DNA of 32,000 bases from Candidatus Heimdallarchaeota archaeon (GTDB lineage: Archaea; Asgardarchaeota; Heimdallarchaeia; Heimdallarchaeales; Kariarchaeaceae), in NCBI GenBank assembly GCA_030149205.1, contig JASBSB010000007.1, positions 120,001 through 152,000 of the forward strand, written 5' to 3'. The notes beneath the pieces were generated by a model. The model saw only the letters and a program-made list of their open reading frames with translations. It did no database searches and was not told the DNA's origin. Below are positions 4,991 to 28,926 of this stretch, one piece after another. A program made the translations under genes and the position numbers. The stretch's first letter is position 1. The number at the start of each line of letters is the position of its first letter.

Positions 4991-5082
4991 GGGCTGATAG
5001 ATCAGGCCGGTAGATCGCTTCGCTTGCATCTATTTTATAGAAAGAACCGAAGAGGCCGCGAGTTCAAATCTCGCTCAGTCCA
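4991..5082 (+). tRNA. tRNA-Ala(TGC) with 18-nt intron at 37/38 (5029-5046)
   Basis: Acceptor GGGCTGA/TCAGTCC with G3:U70, D stem GATC/GATC, anticodon stem CTTCG/CGAAG, T arm GCGAG-TTCAAAT-CTCGC. Intron hairpin CTAT/ATAG. Confidence 0.9.
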
Positions 5083-8311: not shown

Positions 8312-9754
8312 ATGATTACAGTAAGAGTGGAATCGATATACGGAGTTGCACTTTCTAAAATTCTACTTGATAGTAAGGAAGACATAGTTCTTTCTTCACC
8401 AAATGAAGAGATTCAAAGCTCGTTGAATATAGAAAACAAAGTAGGGATACTTGATGTCCATATTAATGATACGGAAGATAGGAGAGGAATTAATTTAAAG
8501 GGCAACTCAGAAAGTGTTGATCTAGTTTCGTCAATTATTAGAGATGAATTGTATGATACAATTAAATTTTCCCATGAGGAGCAGCAAGATGCAATTTATA
8601 TTTCCCGTGTGAAGAATGTGCTAAAGAGAAAAAACACAGGGTTTTTAGATCTAGGTGAGGGGAAGACAGGAATCATCTTTGAAAGTAATCTCATGGATGG
8701 TGAGGATTTAATCGTACAAATTAAGGAGCTACCTATTGAAGAGGGGAGATATCCTGTATGTTCTCAGAACATAAATTTGACAGGGAAATTTGTGATTCTT
8801 GAAAAAAGTGAGGAGGCACCATTTGTAAGAGTTAGCAAAAAGATACAAGGAGAGCTTCGTGATAGAATTCACAGTCTTGGGAAAGAGTTAGTTCCGGATG
8901 GATTTGGTATTATTATGCGAACTTCTGCTGTCGATGTCTCTAAAGAGAAGATTGAAGAGGAGATAATGGATTTAAAGAAATTATGGCAGAGGGTCGAGAA
9001 GGCTAAGGAAAAGGACAGATTGGGAAAAGTTCATACTGGAGAAAAATTGGTTACCTTCCATTTTAATTATAACACCAAAGTAAAATTAGATAAAATTAGA
9101 AAGGTAATTGAACCAATTATAGATAATTACCATGTGTACCGATCTTATTCATATGCTACAGGATTTTCAGCAAATTTAGCGAATAAGTTCTTAGACAAGG
9201 TTTCTGCATCTAATTTTTCGGATGTGATGAAGAAAATGATCCTTCAATCAGACTATCGAGAGAATCATGTTATTAAATTAAATGTCTTAGGTTTAGACGG
9301 GACAAATAATGAGGTTTATCTTGGAAATCTTAAAGACGTTTCTGATCATTTTATGATCCAAAAGAGCTTGGATCAAAAAAGTGCAGAGTCCACAGAAACA
9401 AATTTCATACTTTACCCAGGTGATTATATTGAAACCCATTTGGATGAGGGAAGCTGGACAATTCACTACAGGTATTTCTCGGGTGAGGACAAAAGTTTAA
9501 TCGGTGAACGTATTCAGTTAGTCACCCCCATTGAGCTAAGTTTTAGAGGTAAGTTTTCAACAGTAAGTCTCGGAATTAATATTTATAAGGATGCTAAAAC
9601 CAAAGAAATTGATCTTTTAACAGATGATGATGCAGGTGAAGATCTTTTAGAAAAAGAAATAATTTCGAGTAATTTAGATATGAAACTGGGAGAGACTATT
9701 GAGGATATAATAAAGACCTTTCAATCCTCAGAGGATTTAATTATTCGAAAGTAG
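8312..9754 (+). CDS. fau-1: FAU-1 (RNA-binding protein AU-1; RNase E/G-like S1 region plus DUF402)
   Basis: N-terminal VRVESIYGVALSKIL, RNase G-like VQIKE...GFGIIMRTSA, C-terminal TPIEL. Confidence 0.75.
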   Translation: MITVRVESIYGVALSKILLDSKEDIVLSSPNEEIQSSLNIENKVGILDVHINDTEDRRGINLKGNSESVDLVSSIIRDELYDTIKFSHEEQQDAIYISRVKNVLKRKNTGFLDLGEGKTGIIFESNLMDGEDLIVQIKELPIEEGRYPVCSQNINLTGKFVILEKSEEAPFVRVSKKIQGELRDRIHSLGKELVPDGFGIIMRTSAVDVSKEKIEEEIMDLKKLWQRVEKAKEKDRLGKVHTGEKLVTFHFNYNTKVKLDKIRKVIEPIIDNYHVYRSYSYATGFSANLANKFLDKVSASNFSDVMKKMILQSDYRENHVIKLNVLGLDGTNNEVYLGNLKDVSDHFMIQKSLDQKSAESTETNFILYPGDYIETHLDEGSWTIHYRYFSGEDKSLIGERIQLVTPIELSFRGKFSTVSLGINIYKDAKTKEIDLLTDDDAGEDLLEKEIISSNLDMKLGETIEDIIKTFQSSEDLIIRK

Positions 9755-10788: not shown

Positions 10789-10874
10789 GGGTGCATAGTT
10801 TAGTGGCTATAACGCTGCCTTGACGAGTTGTCTCAAAATGGCAGAGGTCGGCGGTTCGAGTCCGCCTGCACCCA
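10789..10874 (+). tRNA. tRNA-Val(GAC) with 13-nt intron at 37/38 (10826-10838)
   Basis: Acceptor GGGTGCA/TGCACCC, anticodon stem CTGCC/GGCAG, T arm GGCGG-TTCGAGT-CCGCC. BHB core TTGA/TCAA. Confidence 0.92.
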
Positions 10875-12970: not shown

Positions 12971-13106
12971 TAAAATTTATTTAATAGGTTTGGTAAAAAT
13001 ACATGAAAATTTGAGATTAAGAGAATTTACATTTTTAATGTCGCTCCTACCACGAAAAAATGAAAAGATTTAATTTACTTCTTTTGAATTTAACTTATCC
13101 CAAATT

Positions 13107-13239
13107 AGCGAGATATCGAAGTGGCCAAACGAGATGGACTCAAGAAGGTGAGAATACGCTTCTCACAAGTTTAGGCATCCATTCCCGAAGGGGTTCGGGG
13201 GTTCGAATTACAAAATGTACGAAATTCCCCCTCTCGCTA
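13107..13239 (+). tRNA. tRNA-Leu(CAA) with two introns: 37/38 (13145-13176) and 59/60 (13208-13225)
   Basis: Acceptor AGCGAGA/TCTCGCT with A73, ATGGA-CTCAAG|A-TCCAT, long variable arm CCC-GAAG-GGG, T stem GGGGG/CCCCC. BHB core TTCG/CGAA. Confidence 0.88.
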
Positions 13240-13252
13240 TTTATTTTTGTAC

Positions 13253-22370: not shown

Positions 22371-22483
22371 TCGAGGAATCAGTTCGGGAGGTGAAGCCTC
22401 TTACGAAAGCTTAAAAAAAAGGATTCTTGTAATTTAGTCTATGAAACAATGGGTTTGATTTATACATCTATCCATGTTTCTGT

Positions 22484-22609
22484 GTCTGAGTAGCTCAGCT
22501 GGTTAGAGCGCAAGACTCATAAGTAAAATAAAGGCAAGACACAACACTGTGAAATCTTGAGGTCGCGGGTTCGAGAAAAGTTTTTCTTTCGAAATTCCCG
22601 CCTCAGACA
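22484..22609 (+). tRNA. tRNA-Met(CAT), probably elongator, with two introns: 37/38 (22522-22553) and 59/60 (22576-22595)
   Basis: Acceptor GTCTGAG/CTCAGAC, D stem GCTC/GAGC, anticodon stem CAAGA/TCTTG, T stem GCGGG/CCCGC. BHB core TTCG/CGAA. Ile2 identity not excluded. Confidence 0.9.
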
Positions 22610-22670
22610 TAATCTATACTCAAAATACTTTAATATGTTTAATTTTAAGTAAGCCATCTATCTCTATAAT

Positions 22671-23474
22671 TTGTTTAAAGCAAGCCATCCATTTTCCGGG
22701 ATTATGACCACCTTATTTTCGATTATTATTACATCGAAAGTGACAAAGAACTTTGAAGTTATTGTGATCGTTGGGTCCTTAATCTTGCTTTCTCAGCTCA
22801 TAGTTGGGATTTCAAATGATTTTTTAGATTTAGAAACTGATAGACTATACCAACCAGACAAACCATTAGTTAATACCACAATATCTTCAACTCAAATAAA
22901 AATAGCATTGGGAATTTTGGGAGGGGGATTTATAACTCTTGGTTTCCTTTATACGACAGCTATTGGAGCTGTTGTTTTGACAATTGGAATTCTGAGTGGT
23001 CTTAGCTATAACCTTGGATTTAAACGCACAATCTATAGTCCTGGATCATACTTTCTCGCCTTTGGAATGCTTTTTTTGCTTCCTTTTACTTTTGTTAAAC
23101 CTGAGTTGATTTTTAGTGCATCACCAGTTTTTATGATTTCTGGTTTCATCTTAATTTTTCAAGGGCATATACTTAATTCCATAATTGATATTGATACTGA
23201 TAAAATTACGAGGAACTTTAATTTTGTTGTACAACTTGGTGAGAGAAACTCAGTATTCATTGTAATAATTGGAATGTTAGTTCAAATAATTTTAAACATT
23301 GATACTCTACCAGTGGCTTTAATTTTCCTAATCATGCTAATTTCATTAATGATGGTGTATAGAAATTCAAAGAGTTATCAAAAATATTATTATGGTTTTG
23401 TAGTTTTGGGTTTAATCGCAATCAGTCAAATAAAGTTGTTTACGCCCCCAACAGGAATTTCATCTTTTTGGTGA
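22671..23474 (+). CDS. UbiA-family prenyltransferase
   Basis: NDFLDLETD...DKPL and NSIIDIDTD Asp-rich motifs, many TM helices. TTG start uncertain. Confidence 0.8.
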   Translation: MFKASHPFSGIMTTLFSIIITSKVTKNFEVIVIVGSLILLSQLIVGISNDFLDLETDRLYQPDKPLVNTTISSTQIKIALGILGGGFITLGFLYTTAIGAVVLTIGILSGLSYNLGFKRTIYSPGSYFLAFGMLFLLPFTFVKPELIFSASPVFMISGFILIFQGHILNSIIDIDTDKITRNFNFVVQLGERNSVFIVIIGMLVQIILNIDTLPVALIFLIMLISLMMVYRNSKSYQKYYYGFVVLGLIAISQIKLFTPPTGISSFW

Positions 23475-23534
23475 TTTTGAACCTGTGACCTTCCGGTTAA
23501 CAGCCGGATGCTCTGCCAGCTAAGCTATGGAGGC
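23443..23534 (-). tRNA. tRNA-Asn(GTT) with 19-nt intron at 59/60 (23457-23475)
   Basis: Acceptor GCCTCCA/TGGGGGC with G73, TCCGG-CTGTTAA-CCGGA, T stem ACAGG/CCTGT. BHB core TTCA/TGAA. Confidence 0.9.
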
Positions 23535-23736
23535 ATGGAGCTGTGTTTACAGCAATCCGAATCAGCAACAATTCCTATTCTTAAAATCTTAACGAAAGAT
23601 TACGTTGATACTGATTTCTTTTGACACTCTACTAAACATTTCCATTGGTTAAAAATCCCTTTAGAAATAGATTCCAAAAGAAGTTTATTTCACAACTATT
23701 AAAAGCTAATATAAAGAACTTAATTTGAAATAGATT

Positions 23737-27053: not shown

Positions 27054-27116
27054 ATCTCATTGAATATATAATTCTTTAAGGATTTGGCTACAAGCTGAAT
27101 AAATTTGCAATTAAAA

Positions 27117-27221
27117 TGCTGAGGGGGGGAATTTCATTATTGATTATAATTTTGAACCCCCGAACCTCTATAGGATAAGGATCTGAACCTTACGCCGTTG
27201 ACCAAGCTGGGCGACCTCAGC
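27117..27221 (-). tRNA. tRNA-Leu(CAG) with 20-nt intron at 59/60 (27131-27150)
   Basis: Acceptor GCTGAGG/CCTCAGC with A73, TAAGG-TTCAGAT-CCTTA, variable arm CCT-ATAG-AGG, T stem GGGGG/CCCCC. BHB core TTCA/TGAA. Confidence 0.9.
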
Positions 27222-27273
27222 AGTAATTTAAGTAGAAATTATAGTTATTTAAAACTCAGTATTGTTATTTAGT

Positions 27274-28404: not shown

Positions 28405-28510
28405 AGTATCACTCCTTATTTCAATCAGGTCTAGTAACCTTAAAGCAGGATTAATTGAGATGATATTTCTTTATTTTAAAAGGTAAATATTGGTTACAGA
28501 AATTAATTTA

Positions 28511-28625
28511 CGCCTCCGCCGGGAATTTCACCAGTAAAGCTCAATTACTAAGATTTGAACCCGGGTCGAAAGAGTTCTGCAGAATATGACAGTCTTCCAT
28601 GATAGCCTAACTACACTACAGAGGC
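28511..28625 (-). tRNA. tRNA-Asp(GTC) with two introns: 37/38 (28575-28586) and 59/60 (28525-28553)
   Basis: Acceptor GCCTCTG/CGGAGGC with G73, GAAGA-CTGTCA|C-TCTTT, T stem CCGGG/CCCGG. BHB cores CTGT/GCAG and TTCA/TGAA. Confidence 0.9.
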
Positions 28626-28926
28626 ATTGTTTGTCGTAGATCACACGTAGTAATCATTGACAAGGTGAAATAAAATTGGTATAAAAAAAGATTTTCGATA
28701 GATTTGACATAAATTTGGATAAAATAAGCTTGAGATTAAAAAAAAATCAGTTTTGATTTCATATCTATCAATTTCTACTCAAAACCATAATAGCTTAATG
28801 CATCATATAAATTTTACTTGGGTTTAAGGACATAGACAATGTAGATGCATTAATGTTATTGATTTTCACTCGATTATAAATCGGCATGAGCTTCTAATTT
28901 AAATAAAATTTGTTGAATCAACCGTT

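Follow-up and report, generated by a model that had tools for sequence, protein, structure and literature searches.

The DNA analysed here (the window) is a 32,000-nt stretch, positions 120001-152000 of contig C8 in a source genome of 3,308,062 bp that is 93.5%-complete and assembled into 12 contigs. Positions 13107-13239 of the window, on the forward strand, hold a class II tRNA-Leu(CAA) gene that is split by two short introns. This agrees with an initial annotation of the locus, which had proposed the Leu(CAA) identity and two introns, one of 32 nt at position 37/38 and one of 18 nt at position 59/60; positions and lengths were both confirmed. The gene and its immediate flanks comprise the following features:

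13069-13077, + strand: A/T-rich box TTTAATTTA, a candidate archaeal TATA element read from the sequence
13107-13144, + strand: exon 1, tRNA positions 1-37 (ARAGORN on the spliced sequence; exon conserved in orthologs)
13145-13176, + strand: intron 1, position 37/38, 32 nt (fold, spliced call, sequence reading and ortholog introns at the same site)
13177-13207, + strand: exon 2, positions 38-59 (ARAGORN on the spliced sequence)
13208-13225, + strand: intron 2, T-loop position 59/60, 18 nt (strict BHB scan and minimum-energy fold)
13226-13239, + strand: exon 3 (ARAGORN on the spliced sequence)
13240-13248, + strand: T-run TTTATTTTT, a candidate archaeal transcription stop read from the sequence

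Once 13145-13176 and 13208-13225 are removed in silico, ARAGORN calls Leu(caa) from the remaining 83 nt, which constitute the mature tRNA. In this spliced cloverleaf the acceptor stem has 7 bp (AGCGAGA/UCUCGCU), including A1:U72, and the D stem has 3 bp (U10:A25, C11:G24 and G12:C23), so that both of the pairs singled out as unusual in the initial annotation are indeed present. The anticodon stem of 5 bp (AUGGA/UCCAU) closes the loop CUCAAGA, with the anticodon CAA at 13141-13143; the variable arm CCC-GAAG-GGG, with a 3-bp stem and a 4-nt loop, is of the long class II type; and the T stem of 5 bp (GGGGG/CCCCC) carries the T-loop UUCGAAU. All 25 stem pairs are intact, as are G18G19, and the discriminator A73 is the A at 13239. 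Exon 1 contributes the acceptor 5' strand AGCGAGA, the D arm, the 5' strand of the anticodon stem and the loop as far as G37; exon 2 the 3' strand of the anticodon stem, the variable arm, the T stem 5' strand GGGGG and UUCGAA of the T-loop; and exon 3 U60, the T stem 3' strand CCCCC, the acceptor 3' strand UCUCGCU and A73, with CCA not encoded. The A/T-rich box lies 30-38 nt 5' of position 1, and the T-run abuts A73 directly on the 3' side. The promoter and terminator scan was of the bacterial type (sigma-70 sites only) and is uninformative for these archaeal flanks. From the unspliced locus, neither ARAGORN at default settings nor Rfam cmscan, at the gathering threshold or at E<=10, returned a tRNA; the T-loop intron hides the gene from both programs and has to be removed before calling.

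Both introns were examined for the BHB motif, in which a 4-bp helix stands between two 3-nt bulges, one on each strand, with further helices on either side, and each splice site follows the second nucleotide of its bulge. Intron 2 lies in a strict hBHBh' motif, GGGGG-UUCG-[AA|U]-UAC...GUA-CGAA-[AU|U]-CCCCC, in which the 5-bp T stem forms the outer helix and UAC/GUA the inner helix, the 4-bp central helix pairs U54-G57 (UUCG) with CGAA of the intron, and the 3-nt bulges are A58-A59|U and A-U|U60. This T-arm BHB, together with the acceptor stem, is already present when the unspliced gene is folded to minimum energy (z = -2.2). The BHB of intron 1 is relaxed: its central helix has three of four pairs (C32:G, U33:A and A35:U, with a C34.U mismatch), its bulges are A36-G37|A and G-C|A38, and a single inner pair is followed by an internal loop. 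Because of the mismatch and the single inner pair, cleavage at 37/38 would depend on a tolerant enzyme. The boundary of intron 1 can slide by one A with no change in the product, and by eye the 32 nt of the intron show no box C/D motifs that would point to a guide-RNA role.

Intron 1 also forms an internal hairpin of 7 bp (GUGAGAA/UUCUCAC), and a different parse of the gene makes use of it. When the T-loop intron alone is taken out, ARAGORN prints a tRNA-Val(CAC) with a 22-nt intron at 33/34 in which the intron hairpin serves as the anticodon stem, as if the transcript were alternatively spliced. This parse would require a 93-nt product whose variable region is long and unpaired, and no BHB marks the junctions. 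Moreover, the orthologs described below conserve CUCAAG and the 5-bp stem around it, and none of them conserves the intron sequence on which the parse draws; the genome also already has a Val(CAC) gene at C2:637593. The probability that we attach to alternative splicing to Val(CAC) is negligible, and the Leu(CAA) parse is retained in what follows.

The locus was placed in its genomic context by a strict BHB scan of the whole source genome, in which introns of 11-120 nt were allowed and every candidate was spliced in silico and passed to ARAGORN with a canonical intron permitted. From 167,195 candidates, a tRNA spanning the junction was obtained in 29 (27 loci), among them the 59/60 intron of Leu(CAA). 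The same scan of the reversed, uncomplemented genome yielded a tRNA from none (0/167,195), so that chance does not account for Leu(CAA). Pro(UGG) and Leu(UAA) were added by a further scan directed at position 59/60. Infernal with RF00005 reports only 22 tRNA genes above its cut-off in this genome, and a direct ARAGORN scan finds nearly the same loci and no tRNA-Leu; taking out the T-loop introns brings the census to about 45 tRNA genes. An intron of 17-30 nt at 59/60 interrupts 24 of these, half of which (12/24) have a 37/38 intron as well. Introns were found at these two sites only and, by a rough count, come to roughly one per gene. Two ARAGORN calls, a Lys CUU with a 138-nt intron (C2:550767-550995) and a SeC with a 69-nt intron (C4:656008-656167), look like false positives and were dropped from the census.

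Seven tRNA genes, Leu(CAA) included, lie in the window, from which default ARAGORN recovers one and the Rfam tRNA model two. The other six are:

4991-5082: tRNA-Ala(UGC), read by eye
10789-10874: tRNA-Val(GAC)
22483-22610, + strand: tRNA-Met(CAU), with 59/60 and 37/38 introns
23442-23535, - strand: tRNA-Asn(GUU), with a 59/60 intron and without a 37/38 intron
27116-27222, - strand (C8:147116): tRNA-Leu(CAG), with a 59/60 intron and without a 37/38 intron
28510-28626, - strand: tRNA-Asp(GUC), with 59/60 and 37/38 introns

The last four were missed by default ARAGORN and at the Rfam cut-off. The window also contains, upstream of the tRNA cluster by a few kb, a 480-aa ORF with an RNase E/G family domain (8312-9754, + strand; PF10150, E 1.6e-14).

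The genome has five tRNA-Leu isoacceptors, each single-copy and each split in the T-loop, and CAA is the only one with a second intron, at 37/38. Besides Leu(CAA) and Leu(CAG), they are:

C2:294837: tRNA-Leu(UAG), T-loop-split
C4:455848: tRNA-Leu(UAA), T-loop-split
C8:261844: tRNA-Leu(GAG), T-loop-split

The initial annotation had named another intact Leu(CAA) gene, together with the lack of a spliced product, as the finding that would make the present one a pseudogene; no such gene was found in the 93.5%-complete genome, either by the census or by a degenerate pattern allowing one mismatch. UUG might in principle also be read by Leu(UAA) through wobble, which means that the Leu(CAA) gene is not necessarily essential.

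Orthologs of Leu(CAA) were recovered from five further genomes of the family, namely G001, G002 and G003 (of the same genus), G007 and G011, by means of a degenerate D-arm/anticodon pattern and by synteny with a neighbouring VWA gene. The six genes of the family share A1:U72-G2:C71-C3:G70, the loop CUCAAG and A73, and the loop is likewise invariant in sister-family genomes. Elsewhere the stems have changed on both strands, at 4:69, 5:68, 6:67, 7:66, 10:25 and 12:23 and also at 27:43, 28:42, 29:41, 49:65 and 50:64, with no pair broken. All six genes have a 37/38 intron (29-37 nt, sequences unrelated), and its BHB is equally imperfect in the orthologs, where two to three of the four central pairs form; in the sister-family genome G033 it is perfect (CUCA/UGAG). 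The T-loop intron is found within the family in the source genome (18 nt) and in G002 (32 nt) only, again with unrelated sequences, and is absent from G001, G003, G007 and G011. In the G002 gene (L046, 1400-1536, - strand, on contig C50 of that genome), the central helix of the 59/60 BHB contains a U.U mismatch; this intron was missed by the strict scan and was read by eye. The presence of the T-loop intron in the source genome and G002 and its absence from G001 and G003 suggest that, inside a single genus, the intron was gained on separate occasions or turns over rapidly, a distribution that fits the repeated gain or turnover reported for Asgard tRNA introns. In the sister families, Leu(CAA) genes (about 20 genomes; L003, L004, L018-L042) have G1:C72 and an encoded CCA, in contrast to the A1:U72 and the absence of an encoded CCA in the family studied here. 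One sister-family group has an intron-less Leu(CAA) (L025, L026, L032 and L037).

These comparisons bear on whether the locus is a decaying pseudogene, that is, a former tRNA-Leu(CAA) that has accumulated insertions as well as substitutions and has dropped out of processing and use. The exons of the source genome are the most diverged of the family orthologs (in the D stem, the variable arm and four acceptor pairs), being further from the same-genus orthologs than those are from each other; when the 133-nt gene was compared with 40 relatives by BLAST, only weak matches to the 5' exon in a sister family came back, and none in the same genus; and the BHB at 37/38 is imperfect. A short-word BLAST comparing the exons with the syntenic loci gave no usable information. 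The divergence could also mean relaxed constraint, although every change is compensated. Decay sits poorly, on the other hand, with the status of this locus as the sole Leu(CAA) gene found in the genome, and with its intact stem pairs, each of whose differences from the orthologs is compensated; compensatory change with no broken pair indicates a tRNA under selection rather than a pseudogene. The supposed T-loop insertion is a strict BHB at the exact position used by 23 other tRNA genes, and A73, G18G19, the T-loop UUCGAAU and the downstream T-run are all intact. We consider a pseudogene to be very unlikely.

Another way to account for the divergent exons would be that the tRNA gene is foreign, carried in on a virus or mobile element. 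The surroundings of Leu(CAA) do not bear this out: the gene is flanked by housekeeping genes, encoding a PGI-like SIS protein, a VWA/MoxR-type ATPase pair and MoaA, in a region of ordinary GC content with no integrase or repeats seen adjoining. The same neighbourhood recurs in G007, where the tRNA gene occupies the same place and is convergent with the VWA gene, and in G001 and G002, where it lies on the opposite side of the VWA-ATPase pair, an arrangement consistent with a small inversion. Furthermore, the family-specific acceptor start A1-G2-C3 is kept, and this feature and synteny suggest that the gene belongs inside the family's own Leu(CAA) clade. Foreign origin is accordingly judged extremely improbable. 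Judged by the neighbouring VWA protein (69-79% identity), the closest named relatives are Candidatus Heimdallarchaeota and Kariarchaeota MAGs, which identifies the host as an Asgard archaeon.

UUG, the codon that Leu(CAA) would read, is known as an alternative start codon. Together with the first base pair, this raises the possibility of a special initiator-like or factor-discriminating role, for instance aIF2 binding or leucine initiation at UUG. A1:U72 is a conserved hallmark of archaeal and eukaryotic initiators, most elongators there having G:C (PMC5393177), and the initial annotation had hinted that it makes this tRNA atypical. In the source genome, however, the pair occurs in 7 of the approximately 45 tRNAs, namely the initiator, three of the five Leu isoacceptors (UAG, UAA and CAA) and three further elongators, so that six tRNAs besides Leu(CAA) share it; it is also invariant in the five same-family orthologs. 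The initiator and the three further elongators are located as follows:

C2:248973-249048: true initiator tRNA, with A1:U72, GGG/CCC in the anticodon stem and the anticodon CAU
C2:484585: tRNA-Val(UAC), with A1:U72
C2:525506: tRNA-Lys(UUU), with A1:U72
C4:122004: tRNA-Gln(CUG), with A1:U72

A separate, normal initiator thus exists. Leu(CAA) shares A1:U72 with archaeal initiator tRNA-Met and differs from it in the other marks: its anticodon is CAA rather than CAU, it has a long variable arm, and its anticodon stem AUGGA/UCCAU lacks the G29-G31 run and hence the three G:C pairs 29-31:39-41 of initiators. An initiator-like role for Leu(CAA) therefore seems to us highly unlikely. A1:U72 does depart from the usual elongator G1:C72, but as a trait of the lineage that is found across several amino-acid families. 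Leucine identity in the archaeon Haloferax volcanii maps to A73 and the variable arm (PMC9976931), which would leave 1:72 free to drift. Nor is the supposition that U10:A25 is atypical supported: across the order, 10:25 is a variable pair, most copies having G:C, one sister-family group A:U and the source genome U:A. A broader reading, which we regard as highly improbable, is that in this family (Kariarchaeaceae-like) several elongators have switched to A1:U72. If that were true, 1:72 could not have in this family the role of discriminating initiator from elongators that it holds in other archaea and in eukaryotes, and co-evolution of aIF2 and aEF1A recognition in close relatives of eukaryotes would be implied.

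The machinery needed to process a split Leu(CAA) elongator is encoded in the source genome. It comprises two EndA-family ORFs of 216 aa (C4:500233-500883) and 206 aa (C2:623193-623813), 29% identical to each other and both with N-terminal and catalytic domains, one copy of RtcB, and an archaeal RNase P RNA. According to one published account (PMC5829648), non-canonical introns are cut only by the (alpha-beta)2 and epsilon2 types of EndA; the two paralogs probably fit an (alpha-beta)2 heteromer of broad substrate range. We propose that a precursor of 133 nt plus flanking sequence is probably transcribed from the A/T-rich box at 13069-13077 and would stop at the T-run at 13240-13248. The EndA heteromer would then cut the 3-nt bulges of both BHBs, releasing the 32-nt (37/38) and 18-nt (59/60) introns, and RtcB would ligate the three exons. 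RNase P would trim the 5' end, CCA would be added after transcription, and LeuRS would charge the mature tRNA. An earlier idea, that A1 signals leaderless transcription independent of RNase P, was dropped on account of the RNase P RNA. On the whole of the data, the locus is very probably a single functional Leu(CAA) elongator gene that reads UUG, with a transcript cut by EndA at two BHBs, joined by RtcB and given its CCA post-transcriptionally.

Split tRNA genes of this kind have been described in other Asgard archaea. Introns, often non-canonical and multiple, occur in 92-95% of the tRNA genes of Atabeyarchaeia and Freyarchaeia (Valentin-Alvarado et al. 2024, PMC11291895), and in a survey of 90 Asgard genomes (Goswami et al. 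2026, bioRxiv 10.64898/2026.10.13.758758) annotated introns concentrate at the canonical site and in the T-arm, those of the T-arm being mostly of canonical BHB type. The same survey reports fewer than one intron per tRNA gene for several Heimdallarchaeia lineages. With an Asgard host, two BHB-type introns in Leu(CAA), 12 two-intron genes in the genome and the use of the canonical and T-arm sites, the present case resembles the published multi-intron genes. It differs from the lineages on which published work has focused, Atabeyarchaeia, Freyrarchaeaceae and Jordiarchaeaceae, which have about 2.2 introns per gene, many of them in the D-arm (PMC11291895; bioRxiv 10.64898/2026.10.13.758758), in having roughly one per gene and at 37/38 and 59/60 only. 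Non-canonical BHB introns, including those of multi-intron genes, are also reported from Crenarchaeota/Thermoproteales (Marck and Grosjean 2003; Sugahara et al. 2008; both cited in PMC11291895). They belong to a different phylum from the host of Leu(CAA) and have in common with its 59/60 intron the hBHBh' form, in which a 4-bp central helix goes with two 3-nt bulges, the combination with a canonical intron and, as we propose for Leu(CAA), cleavage by an EndA of broad specificity. Position 59/60 is a recurrent intron site in those lineages.

Leu(CAA) is thus very probably a functional elongator, neither a pseudogene nor initiator-like, and an ordinary case of a published trait. Its split structure and odd first pair are normal for the lineage, and its odd base pairs are family- or order-level variation. 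The gene matters mostly for annotation: ARAGORN and Rfam detect about half of the tRNA genes of this genome and no leucine tRNAs, the other half being missed because of T-loop introns, and from the gene set detectable by default a genome of this kind would look incomplete or recoded unless the introns were removed first. Leu(CAA) is also a reminder that A1:U72 alone is no marker of an initiator, and it adds one more data point for the repeated gain of tRNA introns in Asgard archaea.
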